Shown here: one piece after another, positions 22,990 to 38,825 of the stretch
Numbering within the stretch: position 1 is the first letter of the stretch
Layout: the number at the start of each line of letters is the position of its first letter
Virus record (IMG/VR): IMGVR_UViG_3300002026_000020
Direction: 5' to 3' (one strand)
Length of the DNA stretch: 64,000 nt
Origin: a virus
Notes under the pieces: generated by a model
The model's database searches: none
What the model saw: only the letters and a program-made list of their open reading frames with translations
What the model was told of the DNA's origin: nothing
Program-made: the position numbers and the translations under genes

Positions 22990-25236
22990 ATGTCTATACG
23001 CGCCCTCATGGAATACACACGTTACGCTAAATACAGCCGTTTCGTACCGGAACTCAAAAGAAGAGAAACGTGGGACGAACAGGTTGACAGAGTATTCGAG
23101 ATGCATGAAAAGAAGTATGCGGATAAGATTGAATCCATAAGAGAAGATTTTGAGTTTGCAAAGCAGATGGTAAAGCGTAAGCGTGTTCTCGGCTCGCAGA
23201 GAGCCTTGCAGTTTGGTGGTAAGCCAATCCTTGACAAGAATGCGAAGCTCTATAACTGTACCGTAAGTTATGTTGATCGCCCTCGTTTCTTCCAAGAGTG
23301 CATGTATCTACTTCTTTGTGGTTGTGGAACCGGCTTTTCCGTCCAGACGCACCATGTAGCCAAGTTGAGCGACATTGCAACCAGAACCAAGGCTGAGAAG
23401 ACATATGTTGTTCCTGACTCCATTGAGGGCTGGGCTGACGCTATTGGTGTTCTCGTCTCTTCATACTTCACAGGCGAAGTTCCTTTCCCCGACTATCAAG
23501 GGCATAAGGTAAAGTTCGACTTCAGCAAGATTCGTCCAGCAGGCGCTCCCCTTTCATGGGGTGGCAAGGCTCCAGGCGCTAAGGGCTTGACACAATCCAT
23601 TGAGAAGATGGCAAGTGTTTTTGATGTAACCCTTGCAACCGGATCGAAGCGTCTTCGCTCCATCGACGCATACGATCTTATCATGCACGCATCCGATGCG
23701 GTGCTTAGTGGTGGTATTCGCCGCAGCGCAACCATTTGCATATTCTCGGCTAATGACACCGAAATGGTAAATGCTAAGACTGGTGACTGGTTCATCAAGA
23801 ACCCGCAGCGTGGACGCTCCAACAACTCGGCTCTGCTCATTCGTGAGAAGACTTCCCGTGAAGACTTCGAGAAGCTGATGAAGTCGGTGCGTGAATTCGG
23901 TGAGCCTGGATTTATTTGGAGTGACAACGAAGAAGCTCTGTATAATCCATGCGTAGAAATCGGCATGCGTGCCTATGACGAGAAGGGCAACTCTGGCTGG
24001 CAGTTCTGCAACCTCTGTGAAATCAACATGAAGAAGTGCAAGACGGAAGAGGAATTCCTCAATGTCTGCCGTGCAGCCGCTATTCTCGGAACCATGCAGG
24101 CTGGTTACGATAAGTTTGATTATCTTGGTCCAGTCACCGAAGCCATCGTTCGTCGTGAAGCCCTTCTCGGCTGCTCTATGACAGGCATGATGGATTCGCC
24201 AGAAATAGCTTTCGATCCAGCCATTCAGAAGAAGGGCGCAAAGCTTATTCTCAAGGTGAACGAAGAGATAGCCGCCAAGCTCGGTGTCAACAAGTGTGCA
24301 AGAGCTACCTGTGTCAAGCCTGCTGGAAGCACAAGCTGCTTGCTCGGCTCGGCAAGTGGAATCCACCCACACCACGCTCGTCGCTACTTCCGCCGTGTTC
24401 AGGCTAATGTCAATGAAACTCCACTCAAGTATTTCCAGGCTCACAATCCAAGAGCCGTTGAGAAGTCTGTGTGGAGCGCAACTGGAACTGACATGTCAAT
24501 CGTATTCCTATGCGAAGTTCCCGAAGGAGCCAAGCTCAAGAATCAGATGAACGCTGTCGAGCTTCTTGAGCATGTGCGTCTCACCCAGCAGAATTGGGTT
24601 GAGTATGGCACCCGTGATGATGCGGTAGTCGCTTCATGGCTCCGTCACAATGTTTCCAACACCATCACCGTTCGTGATGATGAATGGGATGATGTAACCA
24701 AGTTCATTTACAACAACCGCAAGTGGTTCGCAGGAATCTCCTTGCTGCCTATGTCGGGCGACTTGGATTACCCGCAGGCTCCGTTCTGCTGCGTCTTGGA
24801 GCCAAAAGAAATAATGGCTCAGTATGGCGAGGGGGCTTTGTTTGCTTCGGGGCTTATCGTTGACGGCTTGAAGGCTTTCGATGATAACCTATGGGCAGCG
24901 TGTGACTCGGCTCTCGGCATAGGTGAGAAGCTTGAGTTGACAGACGAGCAAAAGAAGCTAACCAACGGCAAGCTGAAGGCAGTTGTTGACAAGCTCACCA
25001 TCAAGGAAGATTGGGTACGCCGCTTCCAGCAGTTCGCAGATAGATACTGCGGTGGGGATAAGCGTAGATGCTCACACCTTCTCAAGCATGTCACCAACTA
25101 TAAGCTGTGGGTTGACTTGAAGCGTGAGTACCAAGAGGTTGATTGGAGTCTATGCATGGAAGATGACTTCAAGATTGATGTAACTACAATAGCTGGAGCA
25201 GCTTGCAGCGGTCCAAACGGCTGCGAGATGAAGTGA
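22990..25236 (+). CDS. nrdJ: Class II (adenosylcobalamin-dependent) ribonucleotide reductase
   Basis: RRETW, YNC, GIRRSA, NPCVEI, FCNLCE, VKPAGS, C-terminal CSGPNGC. Confidence 0.9.
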   Translation: MSIRALMEYTRYAKYSRFVPELKRRETWDEQVDRVFEMHEKKYADKIESIREDFEFAKQMVKRKRVLGSQRALQFGGKPILDKNAKLYNCTVSYVDRPRFFQECMYLLLCGCGTGFSVQTHHVAKLSDIATRTKAEKTYVVPDSIEGWADAIGVLVSSYFTGEVPFPDYQGHKVKFDFSKIRPAGAPLSWGGKAPGAKGLTQSIEKMASVFDVTLATGSKRLRSIDAYDLIMHASDAVLSGGIRRSATICIFSANDTEMVNAKTGDWFIKNPQRGRSNNSALLIREKTSREDFEKLMKSVREFGEPGFIWSDNEEALYNPCVEIGMRAYDEKGNSGWQFCNLCEINMKKCKTEEEFLNVCRAAAILGTMQAGYDKFDYLGPVTEAIVRREALLGCSMTGMMDSPEIAFDPAIQKKGAKLILKVNEEIAAKLGVNKCARATCVKPAGSTSCLLGSASGIHPHHARRYFRRVQANVNETPLKYFQAHNPRAVEKSVWSATGTDMSIVFLCEVPEGAKLKNQMNAVELLEHVRLTQQNWVEYGTRDDAVVASWLRHNVSNTITVRDDEWDDVTKFIYNNRKWFAGISLLPMSGDLDYPQAPFCCVLEPKEIMAQYGEGALFASGLIVDGLKAFDDNLWAACDSALGIGEKLELTDEQKKLTNGKLKAVVDKLTIKEDWVRRFQQFADRYCGGDKRRCSHLLKHVTNYKLWVDLKREYQEVDWSLCMEDDFKIDVTTIAGAACSGPNGCEMK

Positions 25237-25270
25237 GTGATACAGTGGGGTGGGCTACCAACTCACCCCA

Positions 25271-25348
25271 TTGACATTACTAAAAAGCTGTTATACTAAA
25301 CCTCAGAAGAAAGAAAAAGTAAGTGGTCGTGTGAACCGCTTATAAATA
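25271..25348 (+). promoter_or_regulatory. Promoters for tRNA array 1: TTGACA-N15-TATACT and late TATAAATA
   Basis: TTGACA 25271, TATACT 25292, TATAAATA 25341. Confidence 0.65.
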
Positions 25349-25372
25349 CCTATAACAAGGATTCAGATTTCA

Positions 25373-25447
25373 ATGACTACATGCACCTATAATAAGATAG
25401 CAAATAAAGGATGTGCCGAAGGTACAATCCTCGGGGGTGCGGTGTAA
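25373..25447 (+). CDS. Attenuator leader peptide 1 (MTTCTYNKIANKGCAEGTILGGAV)
   Basis: AAGGA RBS at 25357; 24 codons; 3' end complementary to the terminator 5' arm. Confidence 0.75.
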   Translation: MTTCTYNKIANKGCAEGTILGGAV

Positions 25448-25474
25448 CAAAGGTTCTCAAACCTAAGATTCACC

Positions 25475-25510
25475 GAAACCCCTGGCTAAAACCAGGGGTT
25501 TCTTCTTTTA
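25475..25510 (+). terminator. Intrinsic terminator (attenuator) upstream of tRNA array 1
   Basis: GAAACCCCTGG-ctaaaa-CCAGGGGTTTC followed by TTCTTTT. Confidence 0.9.
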
Positions 25511-25569
25511 CAACTTTATATAAGTAGTTTGATGTTTCTTCTTTTACAACTTTATATAAGTAGTTTGAT
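25498..25569 (+). repeat. Perfect 36-nt tandem duplication
   Basis: gtttcttcttttacaactttatataagtagtttgat twice. Confidence 0.95.
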
Positions 25570-25572: not shown

Positions 25573-25646
25573 GCCGGTGTCGTATAACGGAAATACGAAA
25601 CATTGCCAATGTTTAGATAGGGTTTCGACTACCCTCACTGGCTCCA
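25573..25646 (+). tRNA. tRNA-Gly(GCC)
   Basis: Cloverleaf, AAACA-TTGCCAA-TGTTT, U73, CCA. Confidence 0.9.
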
Positions 25647-25649
25647 TAT

Positions 25650-25725
25650 GTTCCTATCGTCTAACGGTTTAGGACAGTAGACCCTCAATCTACTAATAGC
25701 GGTTCGAATCCGCTTAGGAACACCA
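25650..25725 (+). tRNA. tRNA-Glu(CTC)
   Basis: GTAGA-CCCTCAA-TCTAC, CCA. Confidence 0.88.
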
Positions 25726-25906
25726 AACGGTGACTCACACACCATAAACGCTAAGGCGAAGTGAGGGATTGAAAGATAGAAAATGGGATTATACTTATCC
25801 CTGTCAGCAACGATGAGCGAGCCATAAGACTCCGTGAAAGACACGGCAGGCAGACCTAAGTAGTAGTTGACACGATTGACAACTTTATATAAGTAGCTTG
25901 AATTAT

Positions 25907-25992
25907 GGGTGGTTCGGGTAGCGGCAATCTCAAAGCACTGTAAATGCTTCGCTCAAAAGGCTTCGCTGGTTCGAGTCCAGCACCACCCACCA
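25907..25992 (+). tRNA. tRNA-Tyr(GTA)
   Basis: AAGCA-CTGTAAA-TGCTT, long variable arm, CCA. Confidence 0.9.
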
Positions 25993-26028
25993 ATTATGGT
26001 TCCGTCAGTAATGACATAAAACTCACGA

Positions 26029-26114
26029 ACGAGGATAGGTCGCTCTTATCAGATTCGGGAGGAATCCTTCGACGAGGATAGGTCGCTCTTATCAGATTCG
26101 GGAGGAATCCTTCG
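26029..26114 (+). repeat. Perfect 43-nt tandem duplication
   Basis: acgaggataggtcgctcttatcagattcgggaggaatccttcg twice. Confidence 0.95.
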
Positions 26115-26186
26115 CCTAAAGCGGAGGGGAATCGCCATGCGTAGGTTTGTAGGCACGCTTCCAATAAAGAAAGCAACCTTCACCAT

Positions 26187-26277
26187 GCGTCCGTGCGTTG
26201 AGTGGCTGAAAACCTCCGACTCTTAATCGGAATGAGTTTATCTCACATCGTAGGTTCGAATCCTACCGGACGCACCA
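26187..26277 (+). tRNA. tRNA-Lys(CTT) with long variable arm
   Basis: TCCGA-CTCTTAA-TCGGA, 18-nt variable region, CCA. Confidence 0.85.
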
Positions 26278-26314
26278 TCAAAGGTTTTTCAAGTTTACCT
26301 ATAAACTTGTGCAT

Positions 26315-26405
26315 GCATCCGTGCGTTGAGTGGCTGAAAACCCCCGCCTTTTAAGCGGACGAGACTTGTTCTCCATCGTAGGTTCGAATCCTACCGGATG
26401 CACCA
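26315..26405 (+). tRNA. tRNA-Lys(TTT) with long variable arm
   Basis: CCGC-CTTTTAA-GCGG; paralog of the previous tRNA. Confidence 0.85.
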
Positions 26406-26641
26406 GACGCAGTTGACGGTACAACAAGAGGAAATAAACCGTATTGGCATTTCACTGGCTTCGGTCTGCCCAGCGGAGTGTCACGCTACCATAGGTAGAA
26501 ACTAATAAAGACCGATAGGTAAGGATGTAGTCAGCATAGACTACTGCGAAAGCGGTTCATCCGATGCCGAAATTTCATGCTGATAAGGTGCTGCAAGCGT
26601 TCGTCCTTTGCGCCAGCATACCCGACAATAAAGGACTTTAT

Positions 26642-26733
26642 GGGAACAGGACAGTAAGGAATCCACGGGGATTCACCGGATTGTAAACCCGGACCCTTCG
26701 GGGCACAAGGTTCGACTCCTTCCGTTCCCACCA
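26642..26733 (+). tRNA. tRNA-Tyr(GTA), atypical 8/4-like
   Basis: CCGGA-TTGTAAA-CCCGG, 4-bp T stem, extended D region. Confidence 0.65.
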
Positions 26734-26734
26734 A

Positions 26735-26820
26735 AATGCGTGTCTCGTACATCAGAGGGTTTCTGGTGGGTGTCTGCAAAACACATAGAGTTTGGGGTTC
26801 GACTCCCCCACGCATTTCCA
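26735..26820 (+). tRNA. tRNA-Cys(GCA), atypical 8/4
   Basis: AATGCGTG/CACGCATT acceptor, GTGT-CTGCAAA-ACAC, U73, CCA. Confidence 0.7.
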
Positions 26821-26823
26821 TAT

Positions 26824-26897
26824 GCCTGCGTAGTATAGTGTTATTACAACGCCTTTGTATCGCGAAAACGGGGGTTAGATTCCCTCCGTAGGCTCCA
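26824..26897 (+). tRNA. tRNA-Thr(TGT), weak anticodon stem
   Basis: GCCTGCG/CGTAGGC acceptor, loop TTTGTAT, CCA. Confidence 0.65.
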
Positions 26898-26951
26898 AAT
26901 ATTTCTGTCTCCCAACCACTTGTTAGTATAAATACTGGTAGGGAGATACAT

Positions 26952-27371
26952 ATGACTACATGCTTACATTGTGGAAAAGAACTTGTAATACATAAAGACA
27001 AAAATAAAAAGTTTTGTAACAATAAATGTCAGCAAGATTATCAATATGAACAAAAAGTAAAGTTATGGAAAGATGGAAGGCTAAAGGAAACCAGCGGTGA
27101 TTATCAAATAGCAAGAACTATTCGCCGGTATCTTTTTGAAAAACATGGTAATAAATGTTGTGAATGTGGTTGGGATAAAATAAACCCGATAACTGGTAAA
27201 TGCCCGTTAGAAGTTGAACATATAGATGGAAACCATGAAAATAATAAAGAAGAAAACTTAACTCTTCTTTGTCCAAATTGTCATTCATTGACTCCTACCT
27301 ATAAAGCATTGAATAGAGGAAAGGGTAGAAATCAAAGGATGAAAAGGTATAAAGAAGGAAAAACATTTTAG
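26952..27371 (+). CDS. HNH homing endonuclease
   Basis: LEVEHIDGNHENN..ENL.LLCPNCH. Confidence 0.9.
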   Translation: MTTCLHCGKELVIHKDKNKKFCNNKCQQDYQYEQKVKLWKDGRLKETSGDYQIARTIRRYLFEKHGNKCCECGWDKINPITGKCPLEVEHIDGNHENNKEENLTLLCPNCHSLTPTYKALNRGKGRNQRMKRYKEGKTF

Positions 27372-27374
27372 AAT

Positions 27375-27472
27375 GCTGCTTTAGCTCAGTTGGTAGAGCA
27401 ATAGTTTTGGTTGACTGAAATCAACTTCCAGTAAACTATAGGTCGTCTGTTCAAGTCAGACAAGCAGCACCA
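27375..27472 (+). tRNA. tRNA-Thr(TGT) with 22-nt insertion (27409-27430) in the anticodon
   Basis: Canonical D and T arms; ATAGT-TTT[GGTTGACTGAAATCAACTTCCA]GTAA-ACTAT. Confidence 0.8.
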
Positions 27473-27573
27473 GTGTCTCTTTGTTTCTCACCTTGCATAC
27501 AGGAGCATCCCTCAAGATGACTCAAACATGGTGTTGTTTCCTTTCGACATTATCAAAGAAAAGAAACAGGTAT

Positions 27574-27649
27574 AGGCGGTTAGTATACTAGGTGTTTACA
27601 TTCGTCTGTTAAACGAAAGAAGGTGGTTCGAATCCACCGCTGCCTGCCA
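27574..27649 (+). tRNA. tRNA-Asn(GTT)
   Basis: TTCGT-CTGTTAA-ACGAA, G73, CCA. Confidence 0.85.
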
Positions 27650-27654
27650 AGCAT

Positions 27655-27743
27655 TGAAGAGTACCCGAGTGGTAGCAGGGGTCTGACTGTTAATCAGAAA
27701 GCAGAAATGCTCGCCGTAGGTTCGAATCCTACCTCTTCAGCCA
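27655..27743 (+). tRNA. tRNA-Asn(GTT) with long variable arm
   Basis: TCTGA-CTGTTAA-TCAGA; AGCA-GAAA-TGCT variable arm. Confidence 0.85.
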
Positions 27744-28110
27744 AAACAAAGCTGGATAAACAATCCGCCCTGCCAACCTTCACCTGTCCTCGTAGGGGAT
27801 AGTAAACTTCTCTCCAGCATCCGAAAGGATTTGAGGGGTTAGTAAAGGTAAAAGACCTTCCGTAGTAGCCGAGCGTGTCGGCGGCGGAGCACCATTTCAA
27901 CGGATACGATGAATCCGACAGCCGCAATGGGCTGTGAAAATTAGTTGCTGGGTATAGAAGTATCTACTCAGCGGCAACCAACGAGCCATCACCGAGAACT
28001 TTAGCTGAGAGGCAAAGCGTTTCACTCATAAAAAGAAACCAGCTTCACCATTTTTGGATTACTGTGATATAATGGGTATAAATACTTTGTAGCAAAGGAG
28101 ATTTACCCAC

Positions 28111-28644
28111 ATGACAGAAAATCATAGAAAGCTAGTTGAAGCAAATTGTATTCATTGTAATAAAATAATACTAACCAGACCGGATAGAGTAAAAAAGTTT
28201 TGCTCAAAACTATGTAAAAAAATACATAGAAATGTTGAAGTGAAATGCACCAATTGTGGTAAATTAACTCTAAAGAAAAAATCGGCTCTTGCCAATTCAA
28301 AACATGAAATATATTTTTGTAGTAGAGAGTGTAAAGATTTCGCTCAAAGTATCAAGGGTGGTTGTGAGATAATAAGACCTTCTCACTATGGAAATGGTGG
28401 TTTACATTTTTACAAAAGCCTAATAAATAAAACTGACAATCCTAAATGTTGCGATTGTGGTGAAACAAAAAGATATACATTATGTGTTCATCATATAGAT
28501 AGTGATCGTGAAAATAATTCAGTAGATAATTTAGAAATAGTTTGTGCAAATTGTCACATGAAAAGACATCTAAAACTTATAGATGGTGAGTGGCAATATG
28601 GCGCAAAGTATCTTACACCAAGAGAAGATTTAAAAATCATATAA
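28111..28644 (+). CDS. HNH homing endonuclease
   Basis: VHHIDSDRENNSVDNLEIVCANCH. Confidence 0.9.
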   Translation: MTENHRKLVEANCIHCNKIILTRPDRVKKFCSKLCKKIHRNVEVKCTNCGKLTLKKKSALANSKHEIYFCSRECKDFAQSIKGGCEIIRPSHYGNGGLHFYKSLINKTDNPKCCDCGETKRYTLCVHHIDSDRENNSVDNLEIVCANCHMKRHLKLIDGEWQYGAKYLTPREDLKII

Positions 28645-28645
28645 T

Positions 28646-28721
28646 GGGGGCACATGTACCTCGCAGGCGAACCGCACTTGCAATGCAGTTGTGATGGGTT
28701 GAATCCCCATTGTCTCCACCA
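28646..28721 (+). tRNA. tRNA-Ala(TGC), atypical D arm
   Basis: G3:U70 pair, GCA-CTTGCAA-TGC, CCA. Confidence 0.7.
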
Positions 28722-29040
28722 TTTTTCAGTAGAAGCAAATCGTAAGGTACGGCATACATAAACAAATAAGGGTATGCTGGGAGCGGCGACACCAAGCCAG
28801 GGTCTATGCAATAGGCAACACTACATTCAATATAGTAGTTGTGTAAATAAAAACACTAAAGTCACTTTACGGTGGGAAGCCTTAGTGGGTGTGGAGAAAA
28901 TCTCCTTTATTGAGCCTAAAAACTCTAAGCCCTATGGTTGTACTTTGTCGTGACGAGGGTAATCCCATAGGGGAATATCCCAAGTTTAGGCTTCGAACAG
29001 CGGTGTCCACGCGACCAACCCGGCTGACTGAAAACCATTT

Positions 29041-29465
29041 AGGTGTGTAGTATGTGTCGTATAAATGTGTTTGGCGATGCTCAGTCGTTTCATCCTGCTT
29101 GTTTGGATGGGCGGCACCACAATGGACACAGCGATGTAAACCAAACACTGCGCCAGTAAGTACGCAGGGCTACCAGCCCTCGAAGAGTAGAGTATGTGCG
29201 CCTCTATCGCTTACGCTTCGGGGTTTGTTCCCGAAAGTCACACCCAAACCCATTTTTGTTTACCATGTGTGTCGTATAATGTTCTGTGCGAAGTCCGGCG
29301 AAATGACCATCACGGCTCCTGTGAGTCGATAAAGGGTGGTCATCTACCCTCAAAATGTAATAAAGACACAGTAAGCATAGAACAGCGCAGCCAGTACAGC
29401 GGTACTTTTAATTCCGTAGGAGTAGAGTATGTGCGCCTCTATCACAAGGCATGGTAAACAAAAAC
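29041..29465 (+). ncRNA. Two tandem copies of an unknown pseudoknotted RNA motif
   Basis: Shared TGTGTCGTATAA, GACACAG, GCCAGTA and GAGTAGAGTATGTGCGCCTCTATC, with covarying stems. Confidence 0.65.
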
Positions 29466-29471
29466 ATTCAT

Positions 29472-29603
29472 GTGGTGGTCGTAATAATGAAACGAAGTAA
29501 AGACTGTTATCTAAGTAAGTCTTGAAGAAACCGTTTCGTGGAAGTTACAATACGCGGCAATGCAATCGCTGAGATGCTGGTTCGAGTCCAGCCCACCACT
29601 CCA
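29472..29603 (+). ncRNA. tRNA-like RNA (acceptor and T arm with large insert)
   Basis: GTGGTGG/CCACCAC-T-CCA and GCTGG-TTCGAGT-CCAGC. Confidence 0.6.
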
Positions 29604-29742
29604 TTACAGTGTATCACACGCCTGTCAACTTGACTGGCATGGTGGGAAAAATAAGTATTGATAAATAAAAATACCCTCTACAATAGAGGCATGAGCAACG
29701 AAAGAAGCTCGGTTGACAAATATATATGAGTAGCTTGAATAT

Positions 29743-29817
29743 GGGTTGCAAGCATTAGGGCTGATGCAATGGTCTTTTAAACCATGGAAGTAGGATCGAC
29801 CCCTACGCGACTCACCA
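29743..29817 (+). tRNA. tRNA-Lys(TTT)
   Basis: ATGGT-CTTTTAA-ACCAT, CCA. Confidence 0.85.
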
Positions 29818-29922
29818 TAAGAGATTACAGGACAACTCTCTATAAACACTGTACCATTTAGCGAATACAGAAATCAGTTTCGGGTACTAGACATAAATCC
29901 GTCAACAAAAACAACCAATCAC

Positions 29923-29999
29923 GCGCCTAGTGTTCGCCGGTTGTGGACGGTGGTCTTATAAACCATTCTGAGGGTGTTCAACTCACCATAGGCGTACCA
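29923..29999 (+). tRNA. tRNA-Ile(TAT)
   Basis: GTGGT-CTTATAA-ACCAT, CCA. Confidence 0.8.
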
Positions 30000-30147
30000 T
30001 TTTGTAATCGTTGAAGAAGAGGATAGCGCAACTCATAGAACCTTCGGGGGAGAGTTGCCGTATCAATGCGATTCCTTCATTCAACCGTGTTCTCCAGCGG
30101 AACCCGATAACATTGATACGAGTTGCATCTGGATATACAACTCACAT

Positions 30148-30225
30148 GCACCCATCGTCTAACCCGGCTCAGGACAGGAGACTTTCATTCTCCCGATTGG
30201 GGTTCAAATCCCCATGGGTGTACCA
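30148..30225 (+). tRNA. tRNA-Glu(TTC)
   Basis: GGAGA-CTTTCAT-TCTCC, CCA. Confidence 0.9.
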
Positions 30226-30284
30226 TATGACGAAGTTTGTTGGTTTGATACTCAGAGCTAATTAGATAGCGAAACCAACATCAT

Positions 30285-30359
30285 GCTCTATTAGAACAGT
30301 GGCTAGTTCATTCGGCTTTCAACCGAAAGAAGAGGGATCGAAACCCTTATAGAGTACCA
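30285..30359 (+). tRNA. tRNA-Glu(TTC)
   Basis: TTCGG-CTTTCAA-CCGAA, CCA. Confidence 0.85.
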
Positions 30360-30402
30360 AGTGTAAACGCATAAACCCTATCTGGCGGTAGGTGGCACGC
30401 AT

Positions 30403-30477
30403 CGCGGGGTGGAGAAGTGGTAACTCGCTTGGCTCATAACCAAGAGAACGCAGGTTCAAATCCTGCCCCCGCAACCA
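30403..30477 (+). tRNA. tRNA-fMet(CAT), initiator-like
   Basis: CGCGGGG start with C1:A72 mismatch, CTCATAA loop. Confidence 0.9.
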
Positions 30478-30506
30478 TACAAGTCGAGACACATGTCTCG
30501 CAAATT

Positions 30507-30580
30507 TGCGCGGTGGTGTAACGGTAGCATAATAGCCTCATAAGCTTTTGATCAGGGTTCAAATCCTTGCTGCGCTCCCA
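30507..30580 (+). tRNA. tRNA-Met(CAT)
   Basis: AGC-CTCATAA-GCT, CCA. Confidence 0.8.
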
Positions 30581-30803
30581 TTGAGTCTTCTTTCATAACG
30601 AGGGTAGTAGTCTCGTTGTAGTTTCTTTGACTGAAAAAGAAACGCTATACTAACATCTGGTGCCGGGAAAGTGAATGTGGCGTGAGCCAACCTTTGCCGA
30701 GATTCACCACCTTTTATCCCTCCAGCCTCTTCACAATGCAGAAACGGAGACTTGAAAAAACAAGTATCGCTCATAGGGAACGATGAGTGTGGGAGCCTTT
30801 TAT

Positions 30804-30879
30804 GCGTCAATAGCTCAGTTGGTAGAGCGGAACTTTTCCAAAGTTCGGGTCGCAGGTTCAAATCCTGTTTGACGCTCCA
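30804..30879 (+). tRNA. tRNA-Gly(TCC)
   Basis: GAACT-TTTCCAA-AGTTC, U73, CCA. Confidence 0.92.
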
Positions 30880-30938
30880 TTTAAAATAGTTCAATAGTCA
30901 AGTATCGAACTAATATAAATATATGGTATAATATATTT

Positions 30939-31589
30939 ATGTTCTATACCATCTACAAGATAACAAACCGAGTAAACAACAAGATTTATGTCGGCAAACA
31001 TCAAACCGAAACCCTTGACGATTGTTATATGGGTTCTGGAACTCTTTTACTTAGAGCGATAGAGAAGTATGGTATTGATAAGTTTGATAAAGAAATACTA
31101 TATGTATTTGACAATGAAGAACAAATGAATAATATGGAAAAAGAAATTGTCAACGAAGAGTTTTTACTAAGGGAAGATGTTTATAACTTGAAGGTTGGTG
31201 GTGACGGTGGGTTTGGATATATAAACTCAAAAGATACCACCGAGACTACGAAAAAAGGGAGAATAGAATGTGATAAAATAATGTTGAGTAAGTATGGAGA
31301 TGATTGGAGACAAATCTTAGGGAAAAAAGCTGGCAATGCTTCGTGGGATAAACGAAAAAAGACTGGCAATATCCTTATAGGAAATCCATACTCATTCTTA
31401 GGTAAAAGACACACTGATGGAGCTAAAAAAATAATAGGGCAAAAAAATTCTATACATCAATCCGGAAATAAAAATTCTATGTACGGAATGATGTGGATTT
31501 ATAATTTAGAAACTTTAGAAAGTAAAAGGATTGGTAATAGAGAAGAAATACCTATTGGTTGGGTTAAAGGAAGAAAAATAAAAAAATAA
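30939..31589 (+). CDS. GIY-YIG (Seg-like) homing endonuclease
   Basis: TIYKITN..NNKIYVGKH..YMGSG, YNL..GG.GG. Confidence 0.9.
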   Translation: MFYTIYKITNRVNNKIYVGKHQTETLDDCYMGSGTLLLRAIEKYGIDKFDKEILYVFDNEEQMNNMEKEIVNEEFLLREDVYNLKVGGDGGFGYINSKDTTETTKKGRIECDKIMLSKYGDDWRQILGKKAGNASWDKRKKTGNILIGNPYSFLGKRHTDGAKKIIGQKNSIHQSGNKNSMYGMMWIYNLETLESKRIGNREEIPIGWVKGRKIKK

Positions 31590-31592
31590 GAT

Positions 31593-31668
31593 GCAGCAGT
31601 AACTCAGAGGCTAGAGTGCGACTTTTCCAAAGTCGATGTCGAGATTTCGAAATTCTCCTGCTGCACCA
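31593..31668 (+). tRNA. tRNA-Gly(TCC)
   Basis: CGACT-TTTCCAA-AGTCG, CCA. Confidence 0.85.
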
Positions 31669-31799
31669 GTTTCGGTTGAATATGTGGATGGGTGCCACCC
31701 TAAAAAGTCGCTTTCAACCAACCCCCTAGAAATAGGAAGTATTCACATTATTCATTGTGCTATTAGGTTCTCTTTATCCTAAGAAACAAAAAAGAATAT

Positions 31800-31875
31800 G
31801 TAGAGCAGTAGCATTAAGTAATGCACCCGTTGTTTATACGGGACTAAGTTGGTTCAATCCCAACCCTCTGCACCA
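31800..31875 (+). tRNA. Atypical tRNA, anticodon TTT (Lys?)
   Basis: CCCGT-TGTTTAT-ACGGG with G33; T arm and CCA present. Confidence 0.5.
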
Positions 31876-32381
31876 GCCAGCCCCTTGAAAAAGGGCTACT
31901 TGTGATACTACAAGGAACAGTAAGGGGATTCTGCACAGGGTTATGAGGTATCGCCAGCACCTATAGCTGGTACGAGCCGAGTAATGTTCTGTGAGTGAAA
32001 ACGCAAGGGCAGAACAGCCTGACCAGTCATTCATCTGGCAAACGGACCCAAAGTATCAAAACCATCGACGCACGATGATGAGAACAAACCTACGAGTTTT
32101 TCAGTAGTCACGAAGGATACAGATCGTATCAACTGAGTGATGAAAGGGCAGAGAAAAACTAAGCGACCTTCAAAGTAGAGTCTCCCGAGTTTCGTGCGGG
32201 TCGGATCAAACGGGATTCGGTTGAGGCTCCGCTTCTTTTTCCAACCGTGGAGGATCCCGAAGTATCGGAAATTCGAGACATGAATACACGGATACCATGT
32301 CATCTTATGTCAACCACAGCACAGAGAGTGCCACACTTCTTATAAAGAACTAAGAAAGTGTCGTAAAGGGGGTTGACACAT

Positions 32382-32458
32382 GCTCCCCTAGCTCATCTGG
32401 ATAGAGCAAATGTTTTCTAAACATTAGGTAGAAGGTTCGAGTCCTTCGGGGAGCGCCA
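32382..32458 (+). tRNA. tRNA-Arg(TCT)
   Basis: AATGT-TTTCTAA-ACATT, CCA. Confidence 0.92.
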
Positions 32459-32465
32459 TTTACAT

Positions 32466-32540
32466 TGCCTCTTAGCTCAGTGGTAGAGCGATTGACTGTT
32501 AATCAATTGGTCCGGGGTTCGAATCCCTGAGAGGCAGCCA
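32466..32540 (+). tRNA. tRNA-Asn(GTT)
   Basis: ATTGA-CTGTTAA-TCAAT, CCA. Confidence 0.93.
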
Positions 32541-32839
32541 ACCAAAAACCCTATGATGACGAGTTGTAAGTCATAGGTCGTTTATTACCATTCGCTTTAA
32601 GTAGCAGCGGCTCGCAAGAGTGGTGATGGTAATAGGTGTTATTGCCGCGAGCATCCCGCGAACAACTCTTAGGGAAGCTCCAAGTAGAAATGAACCGAGT
32701 CCAGTTGCATTCTACTTGACCTATACTGTGTATAGACGGAAATACGATTGGACCGCGAAAAGTTGGATGAAGAACGGGGACTTCACCAACCGCATAGATT
32801 TCTCCCTACCGTGGGGAGTCTAAAACATTCCCCACACAT

Positions 32840-32914
32840 GCCCGAGTAAGCTAATGAATAGACTGACTCTTTCCTAAAGAGTATATCTTGGTTTGATTCC
32901 AAGCTTGGGTGCCA
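32840..32914 (+). tRNA. tRNA-Arg(CCT)
   Basis: ACTCT-TTCCTAA-AGAGT, CCA. Confidence 0.8.
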
Positions 32915-33124
32915 TATGCCGTGTATACCACATTGGCAGAAATAGAGCAGATATCCGAATGCTGCTCAGAAGTGGGTAGCCTGTCCCAAACGACAAAACA
33001 GGGCATCGTGATTCCAGTTACCTGCGGTACAGCGGGGCATATCATGACTGGTGGATGTTGACTAATACTATATAAGGCGAAAGACAATATAAAGTCTTAG
33101 TGTGCGTACCAAACACTGCATTAT

Positions 33125-33199
33125 GCTGGATATGAACAATGGCTGTTCGGCGCTCTCATAAGGCGCTTCCAGAAGGTTCGATTCCTTCATCCAGCACCA
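33125..33199 (+). tRNA. tRNA(CAT), elongator Met or Ile2
   Basis: GCGCT-CTCATAA-GGCGC, CCA. Confidence 0.85.
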
Positions 33200-33382
33200 T
33201 TTACTGTAGGGTAGTTCAGCGGCAGATCAAATCTGAGAGGAAGCGAGAAATTGCTTCTAGGTCGCAAATAGTGACCGTTCGAGGATTGCGCGGGTAAAAC
33301 GGGCTTTGCTCGGGTTCGACTCCCCCTCTTATAGTAATCCTCTTGTGGAGTTAGTATTCTCCTACAGATAAAAATACATTAT

Positions 33383-33457
33383 GGGGGTTTGGTGATAATG
33401 GTAGCACTCGTGCTTTGCAAGCATGAAGCAAGAGTTCGATTCTCTTAACCTCCACCA
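33383..33457 (+). tRNA. tRNA-Ala(TGC)
   Basis: G3:U70, CGTGC-TTTGCAA-GCATG, CCA. Confidence 0.9.
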
Positions 33458-33628
33458 TTCAATTACGGGTTTGTGGGTTTAGATTTCCAGGCAGGCAAAG
33501 AAAACCCTCATGTTGCTTATGTCCAAGGGCGGCTCCTTGGGAGGGGCGGAATCCCCGAATGTTGGTTCGACTCCAACCGTAAGCCCGGAGCCTCGTACTC
33601 GTCACTCTGGCAACGACGAGCCTTTTAT

Positions 33629-33702
33629 GCTGTCATCGGATAATGGTATTCCGTCTGTTTCGTAATCAGAATATAGAGGTTCGATTCCTCTTGACAGCAC
33701 CA
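33629..33702 (+). tRNA. tRNA-Thr(CGT)
   Basis: TCTG(T)-TTCGTAA-(T)CAGA, CCA. Confidence 0.85.
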
Positions 33703-34598: not shown

Positions 34599-34906
34599 AA
34601 GGGGAGTACCAGGGTAGAGGATCAGAGAAGCTTCGGTAACGCGCCCTAAAAAGGCAATTATGGCGGCTGGGAAACTAGCCACTTATACCGGTAAAGATAA
34701 TGAACGATTCTTCGGAATCAGAAAACTAAACATTCTGTTCATAAAGATTCACAAGTCATTACTCTTATATCAAAGCTCTTCAAACCGATTCTTCAAAGAA
34801 CCTCTACCCTGCGAAACCCGCTCTGTCTCACACACTTCCAACCCCTCCAAAAAAAGATTATTGAGATAATCAAAAAACCTGTTATAAATAACATTAGAGA
34901 AAAACA

Positions 34907-35008
34907 ATGAACACCTTATCCACCCAATCATGGCATCAGTCACAGCCCAGCGTATCGCGCTTGGATAGACTCGTTCCATTTATTGACAACGGGGGTTCAG
35001 GTTTCTAA
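34907..35008 (+). CDS. Attenuator leader peptide 2 (MNTLSTQSWHQSQPSVSRLDRLVPFIDNGGSGF)
   Basis: Follows TATAAATA at 34883; 33 codons; 3' end complementary to the terminator 5' arm. Confidence 0.78.
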   Translation: MNTLSTQSWHQSQPSVSRLDRLVPFIDNGGSGF

Positions 35009-35032
35009 AAGGATAAAATCCTAAAAGACACC

Positions 35033-35067
35033 GAAACCCCCTGGCGAAAACCAGGGGGTTTCTTTTT
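35033..35067 (+). terminator. Intrinsic terminator (attenuator) upstream of tRNA array 2
   Basis: GAAACCCCCTGG-cgaaaa-CCAGGGGGTTTC-TTTTT, near-identical to 25475. Confidence 0.92.
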
Positions 35068-35116
35068 GACAAGTTTATATTGTAGATTATGTTTGGGGCG
35101 GCTTCCGCCCCATCAT

Positions 35117-35207
35117 GGAAGGTAGAACCGATGTGGTATCGGAATTCTTTGCTAAAGAAATTGTTCCCTTTATTGGGAATGGAGTTCGATTCTCCCACTT
35201 TCCGCCA
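35117..35207 (+). tRNA. tRNA-Ser(GCT)
   Basis: TTCT-TTGCTAA-AGAA, long variable arm, G73, CCA. Confidence 0.85.
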
Positions 35208-35252
35208 CAAAAAGCTTGAGGATTGCTATAAACCTATTGGAATCTTCGTCAT

Positions 35253-35326
35253 GCTGCTTTCGGATAGTGGTATTCCGCTTGCTTGGTATGCAAGATACGC
35301 TAGTTCGATTCTAGCAAGCAGCACCA
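35253..35326 (+). tRNA. tRNA-Thr(GGT)
   Basis: CTTGC-TTGGTAT-GCAAG, CCA. Confidence 0.88.
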
Positions 35327-35330
35327 TTTT

Positions 35331-35404
35331 GGGTGATTAGTACAATGGTAGAACATCTCTTTGACGTAGAGAAAACGGGGGTTCGATTCCCTCATTACCC
35401 ACCA
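35331..35404 (+). tRNA. tRNA-Val(GAC)
   Basis: TCTCT-TTGACGT-AGAGA, CCA. Confidence 0.88.
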
Positions 35405-35553
35405 AAACGATATGCGAAACTGCGCTGGTGCAAGACCTGGGCTTGAGCTATAAACGCTCACGGAGTATGCCGCCTAAAACGGATGTTACGAGGAAGGCTG
35501 CCTTGGTTATTCAGAGGGGTTCGATTCCCGGGGATGACATACATATCGTGTAT

Positions 35554-35643
35554 GGAACAGAGAAGCATAGGGGATATGCGTTCGCCTGGAAAGCGAAAGG
35601 TCGCCTCACGGTGGCAGAGTTTCGATTACTCCTTGTTCCGCCA
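35554..35643 (+). tRNA. tRNA-Ser(GGA)
   Basis: TTCGC-CTGGAAA-GCGAA, long variable arm, G73. Confidence 0.85.
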
Positions 35644-35678
35644 TATTGACAATGAAAAATACGAGTTATAATACTTGT

Positions 35679-36059
35679 ATGAGCGATTATGAGAAACAAC
35701 TTGAAGAAGCTAACGAGAAGCTGAAAGGCGAGATAGAAGCTCTTCAAAAAGAAAAAGATGAGGTTGAAGAGAAGTGGAGAACCCACGAAATCTTCGATGA
35801 CAGTGAGTTGTGGTCGCTCGACTATACGATGTCTTGCTTCATCTTGCCAAGACTCAAGAAACTCAAAGACACTAAGAGTGGATATCCAAGTGAATTGGAA
35901 TCTCATGAAGAGTGGGCAGCTATCATGCAGAAGATGATAGATGGGTTTCAAGCGATAGTTGACGATGAAAGATACCCCGCAGGAAGCATGAAACAGAAAG
36001 AAACAATAGAGGCTGGGCTGAAGTTGTTTGCCGAGTATTTCCAAAACCTGTGGGATTGA
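35679..36059 (+). CDS. Conserved phage hypothetical protein
   Basis: WSLDYT..FILPRL..GYP..GL.LF..YF..LWD pattern. Confidence 0.75.
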   Translation: MSDYEKQLEEANEKLKGEIEALQKEKDEVEEKWRTHEIFDDSELWSLDYTMSCFILPRLKKLKDTKSGYPSELESHEEWAAIMQKMIDGFQAIVDDERYPAGSMKQKETIEAGLKLFAEYFQNLWD

Positions 36060-36066
36060 TGGTTAT

Positions 36067-36156
36067 GGATAGGTGGCAGAGTGGTCTATTGCGCTGGTCT
36101 TGAAAACCAGAGGGGGCGAAAGTCCTCCGGGGGTTCGAATCCCTCCTTATCCGCCA
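36067..36156 (+). tRNA. tRNA-Ser(TGA)
   Basis: CTGGT-CTTGAAA-ACCAG, canonical. Confidence 0.95.
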
Positions 36157-36267
36157 GATTTATGTTGACATGTCTTCGGAAGATAGTACCAGTCTCTTCC
36201 CCGCTTTTGCCAGTGGCTTGCGAGTTGATACGAAAAAATCAACGGACCTTACTGGATGTCAATGTAT

Positions 36268-36354
36268 GGAAGCACGGGAACATGGTGTTCAAGCTGCCTC
36301 GAAAGCAGTCCTGGGGGCTTGCTCCCAACCGTTCGATTCGGTGTGCTTCCGCCA
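36268..36354 (+). tRNA. tRNA-Ser(CGA), 8/4 structure
   Basis: GGAAGCAC/GTGCTTCC 8-bp acceptor, ACCG/CGGT T stem. Confidence 0.85.
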
Positions 36355-36533
36355 AGTCTTAGTGAGTGATACACCTTTCCTTATAAGGTGTTCGCCCTCT
36401 TGTATCCTACAGGAAGGCGCTATGATATGCGTATGAGAAAGAGATACGAGCCATAAGACTCCGTGCTAAAGACACGGCAGGCAGACCATCGAAGCCTCAT
36501 ACTTTGAAAACTATATACTGTAGATATGTTCAT

Positions 36534-36607
36534 GGGCGATTAGTACATTGGTAGTACATCGGTTTTACATTCCGAAGAAAAAAGTTCGATTCTTTTATTG
36601 CCTACCA
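36534..36607 (+). tRNA. tRNA-Val(TAC)
   Basis: TCGG(T)-TTTACAT-(T)CCGA, CCA. Confidence 0.85.
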
Positions 36608-36656
36608 TACACGGTCTTAAAATAAACTTGAGGATAGTTGACCGAAACCTCTACAT

Positions 36657-36731
36657 GCCCCGATCATCTAACGGAAGGATACTTCGCTACGAACGAAGCA
36701 ATCGCAGGTTCAAATCCTCGTTGGGGTGCCA
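36657..36731 (+). tRNA. tRNA-Arg(ACG)
   Basis: CTTCG-CTACGAA-CGAAG, CCA. Confidence 0.88.
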
Positions 36732-36801
36732 AAGAGTTAGTTGCTTGTAAAATACTCAAATCCCCCGCATGCAGGGGACAGCCGATGAACAAGCGTTTCA
36801 T

Positions 36802-36880
36802 GCCCGCGTATGCCGCCTGCCTTCTAAGCAGGAGAAAGCTAACTGGACACATGTAGGTTCAACTCCTACCGCGGGTGCCA
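36802..36880 (+). tRNA. D-armless tRNA-Arg(TCT)-like
   Basis: 7-nt linker replaces the D arm; CCTGC-CTTCTAA-GCAGG; T arm and CCA. Confidence 0.65.
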
Positions 36881-36886
36881 TTTTAT

Positions 36887-36966
36887 GCGGGTGTATAACC
36901 TCCGTCTGATAAGCGGTAGAAAGTTTAATTGGTAGCATGTAGGTTCAACTCCTATCACCCGCACCA
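36887..36966 (+). tRNA. D-armless tRNA-Ile(GAT)-like
   Basis: Same architecture; CCGT-CTGATAA-GCGG. Confidence 0.65.
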
Positions 36967-37021
36967 TTTTAAATCGAACCAAATATAAATACTATGATAT
37001 AATATATCATGGAGGTTCGAT

Positions 37022-37648
37022 ATGAGTTACGAAGACATAAAGAAGTATAGGAGAAGGTTCAAGGAAAAGATTGTAATGTTAATGGGTGGAAAATGTATGT
37101 GTTGTGGATATAGCAAGTGTATAAAGGCTATGGATTTACATCATGTTGATCCAACAAAGAAAGAATTTACTATCAGTCAAATGATCATCCTTAACTGGAA
37201 GCGTATCTTTAAAGAATGTCAAAAATGTGTTTTAGTATGTTCTAACTGTCATCGGGAGATACATGATAATGTAACACAATGCCCAGAAATGGTTGATATT
37301 AAATACGAATCACTGGCTCCAGATAGAAGAATAGATTGGGAATCACTTAACTTAGATAAAGACGCCATGACACTTAATGTTAAAGAACTCTCTAAAAAAT
37401 ACGGAATCAGTAGAACGGCAATACATAAAAAGTGTAAAGAAAGTAATATAAAACTTAAGGAAATTATACGCCCGTCAAAGTTTATAGTAGATTATGAGAA
37501 GTTGAAAAAACTTGTTACCGAAATGCCGTTTACAAAAATAGGTGATATGTATGGAGTTTCTGATAACGCAATTCGTAAAAGGTGTAAAGTTTTGGGAATA
37601 AAAATACCTAGATTTGGAAGAGGGTATTGGACTAAGAATAAACAATGA
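37022..37648 (+). CDS. HNH homing endonuclease
   Basis: DLHHVDP..KCVLVCSNCHREIH plus HTH tail (GVSDNAIRKRC). Confidence 0.88.
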   Translation: MSYEDIKKYRRRFKEKIVMLMGGKCMCCGYSKCIKAMDLHHVDPTKKEFTISQMIILNWKRIFKECQKCVLVCSNCHREIHDNVTQCPEMVDIKYESLAPDRRIDWESLNLDKDAMTLNVKELSKKYGISRTAIHKKCKESNIKLKEIIRPSKFIVDYEKLKKLVTEMPFTKIGDMYGVSDNAIRKRCKVLGIKIPRFGRGYWTKNKQ

Positions 37649-37664
37649 TATAATGAAATCATAA

Positions 37665-37760
37665 CGGCGCATAGGTCAGTCTGGTAGACCGCTTGCTTGG
37701 TGAACTAATATTCACTTCCATGGGAGCAAGAAGTCGCAAGTTCGAATCTTGCTGCGCCGA
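37665..37760 (+). tRNA. tRNA-Pro(TGG) with 22-nt insertion (37699-37720)
   Basis: CTTGC-TT[GGTGAACTAATATTCACTTCCA]TGGGA-GCAAG; C1-G72, A73; no encoded CCA. Confidence 0.8.
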
Positions 37761-37842
37761 CTCTCACCTAGAAATAGGTTGTTATTACCGTCGTTTAGTA
37801 ACTGTAAAAAACCTTCCGAAATGAAGGTAAACGGCATTTCAT

Positions 37843-37914
37843 CAGGCTGTGGGATAATGGTAGTCCACTCGTTTTGGAAGCGAGGAAAAGTTGGTTCGAT
37901 TCCAACCAGTCTGA
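37843..37914 (+). tRNA. tRNA-Pro(TGG)
   Basis: CTCGT-TTTGGAA-GCGAG; no encoded CCA. Confidence 0.8.
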
Positions 37915-37984
37915 TTCTTTCAATGGGGATGAAACGCCCCAGCCCATCACAAGCCTCTTTACAATGCTCAACCCGTGATGTCGT

Positions 37985-38060
37985 GGTCCTTTCGTATAGT
38001 GGTTTATTACATCTCCCTGTCACGGAGGAAATGCGAGTTCGATTCTCGCAAGGATCGCCA
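37985..38060 (+). tRNA. tRNA-Asp(GTC)
   Basis: TCTCC-CTGTCAC-GGAGG, G73, CCA. Confidence 0.92.
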
Positions 38061-38077
38061 TTCAGTTTCAAGGTTAT

Positions 38078-38152
38078 ACCCCCATCATATAAAGGCTATT
38101 ATGATAGATTGTCGATCTATTCATGCGGTTTCGAAATCCGCTGGGGGTGCCA
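38078..38152 (+). tRNA. tRNA-Asp(GTC)
   Basis: ATAGA-TTGTCGA-TCTAT, G73, CCA. Confidence 0.8.
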
Positions 38153-38179
38153 AAAATAAATAGTCATGGAGGTATTCAT

Positions 38180-38332
38180 ATGGAATCATTCATGATGATA
38201 TGTTCAATAGCAGCAAGCGTAACTGCTATTATCGTAAACGCTTACACAATCTTCACGATTCGTAAGCACCTTGGTAAGTTAGCCAAGGAAGGATATGAGA
38301 AGGTTGAGGATAAGATAAAAAAGATTCTATAA
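38180..38332 (+). CDS. Small single-pass membrane protein
   Basis: GGAGGT RBS; hydrophobic N-terminus and basic tail. Confidence 0.6.
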   Translation: MESFMMICSIAASVTAIIVNAYTIFTIRKHLGKLAKEGYEKVEDKIKKIL

Positions 38333-38335
38333 CAT

Positions 38336-38768: not shown

Positions 38769-38825
38769 TTTTCGGTTACATATAAATAATAGTGTATAAT
38801 ATATGTAACAGATAAGGAATAGAAT

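Follow-up and report, generated by a model that had tools for sequence, protein, structure and literature searches.

Enterobacterial leader attenuators, among them trpL, hisL, leuL and pheL, join a short leader whose codons are linked to the genes behind it with a terminator and an antiterminator that exclude each other, and the position of the ribosome on the leader decides between the two. Some of these leaders are multivalent, that of ilvGMEDA carrying Ile, Val and Leu codons and that of thr carrying Thr and Ile codons. Control in the classical trp leader is kinetic, the terminator being the stronger of the two structures in thermodynamic terms. Leader-peptide attenuation also reaches the translation apparatus, the pheM leader attenuator controlling the pheST (phenylalanyl-tRNA synthetase) operon of Escherichia coli. 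Another route is taken by the T-box (RF00230), in which no ribosome takes part: the specifier codon and the T-box sequence themselves bind the uncharged tRNA.

The locus described here lies in a stretch of 64,000 nucleotides from the IMG/VR virus record IMGVR_UViG_3300002026_000020 (the window), where a short open reading frame and a hairpin precede a large array of tRNA genes. Its sequence and predicted folding, together with comparison with other modules, make it likely that the element is a ribosome-sensing (leader-peptide) transcription attenuator of a phage tRNA array. Such an element would share with the enterobacterial attenuators the short leader with gene-linked codons, the exclusive terminator and antiterminator and the decisive role of ribosome position, and the relation between its antiterminator and terminator energies resembles the trp case. 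Unlike the attenuators of amino-acid operons, it would regulate tRNA genes and not biosynthetic enzymes; the phage leaders draw on 9-13 different amino acids, each present once or a few times, whereas enterobacterial leaders run one to three in tandem, and the module is a phage element, apparently behind a T4-type late promoter. By analogy, the closest logic would be that of the multivalent ilv and thr leaders and the closest target that of pheM-pheST. Like pheM, the phage module would attenuate a gene of the translation apparatus through a leader peptide, with feedback on the supply of charged tRNA, but pheM senses one amino acid, controls a synthetase and is cellular, not viral.

Like the T-box, the module would couple tRNA status to terminator/antiterminator readthrough upstream of translation-related genes; unlike in the T-box, the reading frame matters in the phage leader. 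A reading as a T-box riboswitch, which would have a stem I with a specifier loop and a conserved T-box sequence in the antiterminator bulge, was rejected: no T-box or other regulatory family of Rfam was found in the window, where the matches at gathering thresholds were tRNA, RNase P RNA, tmRNA and abiF. A search of the full-text literature found no published description of such attenuation of tRNA genes; we know of no earlier case of attenuation control of tRNA genes, and this would be the first.

The tRNA region of the phage and its candidate modules

The window belongs to the genome of a large uncultured phage, in which PHROG annotation recognises a gp5-like baseplate hub and several HNH endonucleases and identifies no late sigma factor within the window. 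More than 45 tRNA genes, all on the + strand, lie between 25573 and 45578, and a bacterial-type RNase P RNA and a tmRNA are encoded as well. The DNA runs in which the phage occurs are microbial-mat metagenomes, and relatives come from wetland, soil and freshwater sediment; RNA sequencing runs contained less than 10% of the words sampled. The phage collection held no DNA match to the region, nor was there any close cultured relative by the DNA of the tRNA region, and a first pattern scan of IMG/VR gave no match. A scan of metagenomes returned 17 hits, of which one alone, L025, is related, being 82% identical at the second of the two modules. The features of the region are as follows.

22990-25236: class II ribonucleotide reductase, upstream of module 1
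25273-25300, + strand: possible sigma-70-like promoter (TTGACA, 15-nt spacer, TATACT) as read from the sequence, after the ribonucleotide reductase gene
25341-25348, + strand: TATAAATA box, T4-type late-promoter-like, putative promoter 25 nt 5' of the leader ATG
25357-25361, + strand: Shine-Dalgarno-like AAGGA, 11 nt 5' of the ATG
25373-25447, + strand: leader 1, an open reading frame of 24 codons, MTTCTYNKIANKGCAEGTILGGAV, with ATG at 25373 and TAA at 25445-25447; codons 2-17 form the putative sensing span
25432-25444, + strand: segment A, predicted 5' strand of the antiterminator, CGGGGGUG + CGGUG, within the last codons of the leader
25451-25464, + strand: small hairpin B, AGGUU-CUCA-AACCU, enclosed by the antiterminator
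25471-25484, + strand: predicted 3' strand of the antiterminator, CACCG-AA-ACCCCUG, overlapping the 5' arm of the terminator
25475-25512, + strand: predicted intrinsic terminator 1, stem 25475-25502 of 11 bp with a 6-nt loop, then a U-rich UUCUUCUUUU tail; -19.5 kcal/mol
25498-25569, + strand: promoter-like motif TTTACAACTTTATATAAGTAG..., in two tandem 36-nt copies, ending 3 nt before the first tRNA
25573-33702, + strand: tRNA array 1, about 24 tRNA genes with HNH endonuclease reading frames interspersed, comprising Gly, Glu, Tyr, Lys (three), Thr (three), Asn (three), Ala (two), Ile(TAT), Glu (two), Met (three), Gly (two) and Arg (two)
34883-35079, + strand: module 2, with a TATAAATA box, leader (34907-35008), antiterminator, terminator (35033-35062) and promoter-like motif
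35117-45578, + strand: tRNA array 2, behind module 2

The two paralogous modules split the tRNA set of the phage, and the genetic code, between two arrays. Terminators of this type number two in the window, one directly ahead of each array.

Several signals surround the leader. The TATAAATA box, which we take to fit the T4 late-promoter consensus, occurs 23 times in the window against 3.6 copies expected, mostly just 5' of the starts of open reading frames; one copy stands at 34883-34890, ahead of leader 2, and the box also lies 5' of the leaders in two other phage genomes discussed below (L001 and G002). In those two genomes AAGGA stands 8-9 nt 5' of the leader, the gap of 11 nt in module 1 being rather long. 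The possible sigma-70-like promoter has a spacer below the range of the scanning tool and is kept in L025, which is weak evidence.

A motif of the form TTKACAAsTwTATA..GTAG follows directly 3' of both terminators. The copy at 35066 lies about 51 nt before a tRNA-Ser (35117), and further copies stand about 30 nt 5' of the tRNAs at 25876, 29713 and 36504. The tandem duplication belongs to module 1 of the window; L025 and run X4 have a single copy. Taking the TTGACA of the motif as a -35 box with a spacer of 16-18 nt was rejected, as transcription would then start inside the tRNA. The main reservation about the attenuator is this repeated promoter-like motif, at 25507-25569 in module 1: if it is a promoter, then from its place 3' of the terminator and 5' of the first tRNA the array tRNAs may also be made independently of the attenuator, which might control only part of array transcription, namely that from the leader promoter and perhaps late in infection.

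Leader codons and the folding of the nascent transcript

The earlier note had claimed that codons 2-18 of leader 1 all specify amino acids with a tRNA in array 1. At the amino-acid level the claim stood for 15 of the 17 codons and failed for the two Cys codons, 4 (TGC) and 14 (TGT), the count dropping from 17/17 because no tRNA-Cys is detectable: none was found in the window by Rfam or by ARAGORN, whether or not introns were allowed in the latter and also when its threshold was lowered. The nearest tRNA-Cys candidate, at 28648-28721, proved to be a tRNA-Ala, with the anticodon loop CUUGCAA (UGC), G3:U70 and A73. Under strict wobble rules array 1 serves 12 of the 17 codons. The finer points of the claim agree with the tRNA genes found. 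Array 1 holds cognate tRNAs for both Lys codons (CTT and TTT tRNAs), for ATA (Ile TAT) and for GGA and GGT (Gly TCC and GCC), together with tRNAs for the Thr, Tyr, Asn, Ala and Glu codons of the leader. The exceptions that had been named are likewise real: the leader has no AGR codon although Arg TCT and Arg CCT tRNAs are in the array, and ATC, CTC and GTG near its end are served by array 2 (Ile GAT, 36887-36963; Leu GAG, 43458-43545; Val TAC, 36534-36607). For the Met tRNAs of array 1 the sole matching codon in the leader is the start codon.

As a null distribution for this match, every same-length stretch of 24 long open reading frames from the same phage was used. The probability of a chance match between leader 1 and array 1 is about 0.004 for the amino acids of codons 2-18, about 0.009 for all 23 codons and 0.003-0.03 at the codon level. 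Among the residues of the leader, 19/23 match array 1 as against 8/23 for array 2, and the match is specific to the frame, the other five frames giving 7-12 of 22-23. Taken on its own, the match of leader 1 to array 1 is of moderate significance and is suggestive, not decisive.

Module 2 repeats the order of parts of module 1 and has recognisable sequence similarity to it from the TATAAATA box to the post-terminator motif. Its leader, MNTLSTQSWHQSQPSVSRLDRLVPFIDNGGSGF, has 33 codons. Several tRNAs of array 2 had been missed or misread by ARAGORN and were resolved here (Arg ACG, Arg TCT, Ile GAT, an intron-bearing Gln TTG and Ser GGA); with these, 27/32 residues (26/32 codons) of leader 2 match array 2, against 10/32 for array 1. 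For codons 2-27, the score was reached by none of about 9,000 same-length stretches of phage genes. Twelve codons of leader 2 differ in L025, ten synonymously and two non-synonymously, and from this synonymous excess it follows that the frame is under purifying selection. In the terminator of module 2, L025 carries a compensatory change from U:A to A:U, and the hairpin is therefore selected as a structure.

Sequence variation in module 1 comes from a natural variant, X5, which has 13 differences in 135 nt (three near the contig end are unlisted). Codons 5-24 contain two changes, both synonymous, and the stop codon is TAG in place of TAA, and the 76 nt following leader 1 contain 11 changes. Two of the 13 differences form a compensatory pair (25441 G>A and 25474 C>T) that turns an antiterminator G-C into A-U, and 25483 U>C turns a G-U into a G-C; 25485 also differs. 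Hairpin B is altered in its loop alone, and the variant folds to the same antiterminator (-24.2 versus -25.7 kcal/mol). In module 2 the counterpart of hairpin B is AGGAU-AAA-AUCCU, with changes on both strands and the pairs kept. The pattern of selection in leaders 1 and 2 is consistent with translation.

The mechanism that we propose runs as follows. Transcription would begin a short way 5' of the leader, the probable promoter being the late-type TATAAATA box, and a ribosome would translate the 24-codon leader as RNA polymerase moves on. If decoding is fast, the ribosome would come to stand at the last codons or the stop codon and cover segment A (25432-44), the terminator at 25475-25502 would form, and transcription would end before the tRNAs. 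A stall at any of codons 2-17 would leave segment A free to pair with the 5' arm of the terminator once this is made. The codons at which such stalls would be sensed are mostly those read by array 1, namely Thr, Tyr, Asn, Lys AAG and AAA, Ile ATA, Ala, Gly GGA and GGT, and Glu. With the antiterminator formed, polymerase would enter the array and more of these tRNAs would be made, the net effect being a negative feedback on decoding capacity for the codons that the array serves.

The pairing of GGGGT-G-CGGTG (25434-25444) with CACCG-AA-ACCCC (25471-25482), proposed from the sequence in the earlier note, is recovered in the minimum-free-energy structure of the nascent transcript, where it is extended by 25432/25433 with 25484/25483; it is also mutually exclusive with the terminator, as had been stated, since the 3' strand overlaps the 5' arm of the terminator. 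Nascent folds were computed on the transcript up to the base before the 3' arm of the terminator, with a 28-nt mask for the ribosome. In these constrained folds the antiterminator of module 1 has a probability of 0.85 without a ribosome and of 0.85-0.86 with the A site at codons 2-16, and it is lost from an A site at about codon 17-18 through the stop codon. The span that permits the antiterminator, to about codon 17, coincides with the span over which the codons of leader 1 match array 1. The antiterminator of module 2 behaves likewise, its probability falling from about 0.9 to 0.1. In predicted folding, then, the antiterminator forms or fails to form by ribosome position.

Folding with the ribosome constrained at each codon, which had been suggested as a check, thus shows the switch in the nascent RNA and not in the equilibrium fold: in the full transcript at equilibrium the terminator has a probability of 1.0 at every ribosome position. 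Because the terminator always wins at equilibrium, the switch must be kinetic. The codons near the leader ends that are unmatched by the own array (ATC, CTC and GTG in leader 1; AAC, GGG and GGT in leader 2) fit the model, since a stall there could not free segment A. The phage module would consist of three interacting segments (segment A, the 5' arm of the terminator and its 3' arm) and the enclosed hairpin, and no anti-antiterminator segment 1 that would sequester the antiterminator was seen in it. It follows that an untranslated leader should read through, unlike in the trp attenuator; as the model predicts readthrough without any ribosome, control would require efficient initiation of translation.

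Modules in other phages

The search for further modules started from the reductase and, separately, from a pattern that combined the tail of the terminator with the motif 3' of it; the composition of the leader was never used. The pattern occurs at 56 loci, where the tRNA-adjacent modules are only L052 (the contig of L001), L057 and L063. At L079 a similar terminator and motif are found in a locus with no tRNA, and this candidate was rejected; the remaining loci with the pattern were set aside as chance matches inside genes. Although unrelated in sequence to those of the window, the modules share one layout, of promoter, short open reading frame, complement of the terminator 5' arm at the stop codon, terminator and tRNA array. 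They are the following.

L001/G001 (214 kb): leader of 38 codons; array Ile Pro Asp Phe Lys Ser Sup Thr Trp Arg Arg Leu Leu Leu Thr Val His Met
G002 (332 kb; 331,849 bp): leader of 40 codons; array Ser Ser Tyr Phe Trp Ser Pro Cys Leu Ala Asn Met His Ile .. Arg Leu
G003a (143 kb, G+C-rich): leader MKFLALSSLSLYCLSSAGMGASM (MKFLALSSLSLYC..); array Leu (five), Ser (four) and Tyr
G003b: leader MQRTIAMSITKGTKRVIWGGVS; array Met, Ile(TAT), Lys(CTT), Lys(TTT), Arg(TCT), Arg(CCT), Val, Thr, Ile, Gly
Caulobacter phage CcrColossus (cultured): leader MMTYRNNVRQIRVRQFN... (YRNNVRQIRVRQFN), at about 68,149-68,244 of JX100810.1; array Val Ile Ile Gln Gln Asn Arg; checked by eye

Each leader mirrors its own array. 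All 13 array amino acids of L001/G001 occur in the leader (13/13), and Ala, Glu, Tyr and Cys are missing from both; in G002 it is Gly, Glu, Thr and Val that are missing from leader and array alike. The leader of G003a uses the codons TTA, CTC, CTG, AGT, TCG, TCT, TCA and TAT ahead of its Leu, Ser and Tyr tRNAs, and that of G003b contains AGA, ATA, ATG, AAA, AAG and AGG. Lys is present in the leader of L001, whose array has a tRNA-Lys, and absent from leader 2 of the window, whose array has none. The rare residues Trp, His, Cys, Met, Tyr and Phe appear in a leader when the tRNA is in its own array. In CcrColossus a near-copy of the 3' arm of the terminator lies inside the leader. No convincing leader of their own was found for the other sub-arrays after HNH genes in G002 and G003 or for arrays 1 and 2 of CcrColossus, and a leader is thus present ahead of some tRNA blocks, not every one.

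Across six modules (the two of the window and four others, CcrColossus not being included), every leader was compared with every array (6 x 6), and the true pairing had the highest summed z score among 720 permutations. Binomial p values for the single matches of a leader to its own array are 0.0002-0.011, and of the array amino acids 57/60 are present in the own leader. Across modules the match is 80% in frame versus 44-62% out of frame; this specificity is strong for leader 1, G003a and G003b, and leader 2 and G002 match fairly well out of frame too.

The RNA parts recur in the same way. A complement, of at least 7 nt, of the terminator 5' arm lies between -18 and +10 nt of the stop codon in 6/6 modules, and comparison with dinucleotide shuffles gives a combined Fisher p of 3e-5 for the six; for single modules p is 0.08-0.24 in the window, 0.001 in L001 and 0.008 in G002. 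The paired sequences are unrelated from module to module (GGGGGU/ACCCC; CCUAGGUU/AACCUAGG; CCCCAGG/CCUGGGG; GGGGGC/GCCCCC; GGGGUCUG/CAGACCCC), and two of the antiterminators, CCUAGGUU in L001 and CCCCAGG in G002, are not runs of G.

Alternative explanations and significance

The leader-peptide attenuator reading, first drawn from the sequence of module 1, is supported by the analysis and held in each computational test run, that is, in folding, in independent modules and in co-variation. It has to be weighed against the view that the region is an ordinary boundary between transcription units, in which the leader would be a small late gene or a chance open reading frame, the hairpin would end late or upstream transcription, the array would be driven only by the post-terminator motif, and the likeness of leader and array would have no function. 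In favour of such a boundary, the TTKACAAsTwTATA motif stands directly 3' of each terminator and recurs some 30 nt 5' of internal tRNAs; TATAAATA boxes precede many ordinary open reading frames of the window, and the match of leader 1 alone reaches p ~0.01, with its Cys codons unmatched. A boundary nevertheless leaves unexplained why six leaders follow their own arrays (best of 720, 57/60) with frame specificity, why the complement of the 5' arm is always at the stop codon despite unrelated sequences, and why 25441 and 25474 changed in a compensatory way. The first tRNA of G003a, moreover, lies 9 nt 3' of its terminator, so that no room is left for a promoter between the two, and we regard the boundary view as unlikely.

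A further possibility, which we consider more doubtful still, is that a translated leader does sense the array tRNAs through its codons, but with a different output, through stability or processing of the transcript or through action of the peptide, with a constitutive terminator. Leader 2 keeps amino-acid and not codon identity, some of its ten synonymous changes switching the isoacceptor, and the dominance of the terminator at equilibrium would suit this proposal too. The alternative pairing with the terminator 5' arm is, however, conserved and co-varying, and this indicates that it is the terminator that is regulated; between modules, the peptides are alike in composition and not in sequence. 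Composition is also at the centre of the explanation that we find very improbable, a coincidence in which the leader is A-rich, array 1 mostly serves purine-initial codons and G-rich runs pair with any C-rich arm. That leader 2 and G002 match fairly well in out-of-frame translation would agree with it, as would the strong duplexes given by dinucleotide shuffles of G-rich regions and the single-module p of 0.08-0.24 in the window. Against such a coincidence stand the strong frame specificity of leader 1, G003a and G003b, the rare residues that accompany their tRNAs, and the antiterminators of L001 and G002, which are not G-runs and reach p = 0.001 and 0.008.

Under the attenuator reading we infer that leader 1 is translated in vivo, that stalling leads to readthrough and that readthrough transcripts give rise to mature tRNAs; the phage probably makes more of the array tRNAs when ribosomes decode the corresponding codons slowly. 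It is likely, moreover, that 'roster' attenuators occur in large phages from several lineages that are not related to one another. In these a short leader would list the tRNAs encoded 3' of a switchable terminator, at roughly one codon per tRNA, and each block of tRNAs would be transcribed the more, the more slowly its own codons are decoded. Because cultured CcrColossus carries the same kind of module, the idea is open to test at the bench.

If true, the attenuator reading would bear on how phage tRNA genes are regulated and on why they are carried in ordered blocks: the grouping of tRNAs into arrays would be explained, and a textbook mechanism would be extended from the supply of amino acids to decoding capacity. 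The modules would then serve as compact, naturally occurring sensors of how fast chosen codons are decoded, and would offer a direct and testable link between phage tRNA expression and the tRNA pool of the host, including the defence systems that target tRNA. For the phage itself, the supply of viral tRNAs would be driven by demand and possibly responsive to host defences that deplete or cleave tRNAs.

Non-tRNA elements around and within the arrays

Immediately 3' of the stop codon of the class II ribonucleotide reductase gene lies a G+C-rich hairpin (GGGGTGGG..CTCACCCC, window 25246-25272), which lacks a T tract and has the same sequence in L025, a metagenomic relative of the window. Among the tRNAs of both arrays, HNH endonuclease genes and small ORFs are dispersed, each preceded at a distance of some tens of bases by its own TATAAATA box, an octamer resembling T4-type late promoters.

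HNH endonuclease and small ORFs with a TATAAATA box (window positions)
26927
28077
30914
36984
38781
40335
42528
43902

Other RNA genes are also found in and beyond array 2. A full-length RNase P RNA gene of bacterial type A (43548-43872, 187 bits) sits within the array, flanked by tRNA-Leu(GAG) and tRNA-Gln, and a tmRNA with the tag peptide DDSVTYAMAA is encoded at 49019-49385. Between tRNA-Pro and tRNA-Asp, positions 37945-37981 match the abiF RNA motif (RF03085) at 38.7 bits, barely above the threshold of 37.

tRNAs with unusual structures or anticodons

Three tRNAs of the window carry insertions of 22-45 nt in the anticodon loop, those of the two Thr tRNAs being similar to each other; at this length they cannot be group I introns.

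tRNAs with an anticodon-loop insertion (window)
27375-27472, tRNA-Thr (TGT)
37665-37761, tRNA-Thr (GGT)
38650-38768, tRNA-Gln (TTG)

Two neighbouring tRNA-like genes with the anticodons TCT (Arg, 36802-36877) and GAT (Ile, 36887-36963) have a D arm reduced to a 4-nt remnant and a long variable arm; at the corresponding place in L025, the Arg TCT and Ile GAT genes are of normal appearance. In array 1, tRNA-Lys (26187-26277 and 26315-26405) and tRNA-Asn (27655-27743) genes span 89-91 nt, which is unusual for these amino acids. The Rfam alignment gives the tRNA-Asn a long, class II-like variable arm, the two tRNA-Lys genes being assessed from their length alone.

Array 2 ends with an amber-suppressor-type tRNA (anticodon CTA, 45505-45578), a type also present in the related 214-kb phage contig L001/G001 (locus L029, 3416-3488); despite this tRNA, the ordinary ORFs of the window are read well by the standard code. 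Three of these phages share a conserved tRNA-Ser whose anticodon, ACT, is unusual.

tRNA-Ser(ACT)
window 42354-42443
locus L029 3188-3279
locus L088 3192-3282

Duplication and possible recombination in array 1

Between tRNA-Tyr and tRNA-Lys, a segment of about 43 nt is repeated in tandem without any difference (26030-26115), and both copies can be aligned to L025. The promoter-like motif repeated between the terminator (25475-25512) and the first tRNA, tRNA-Gly, shows a 36-nt duplication that is absent from L025 and from sequencing run X4. A single contig from another run, X3, which belongs to a related population, fuses window positions 25546-25568 to 25900-25930, so that the motif upstream of tRNA-Gly runs straight into tRNA-Tyr. 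This junction looks like the product of recombination between copies of the motif, with deletion of the Gly and Glu tRNAs.
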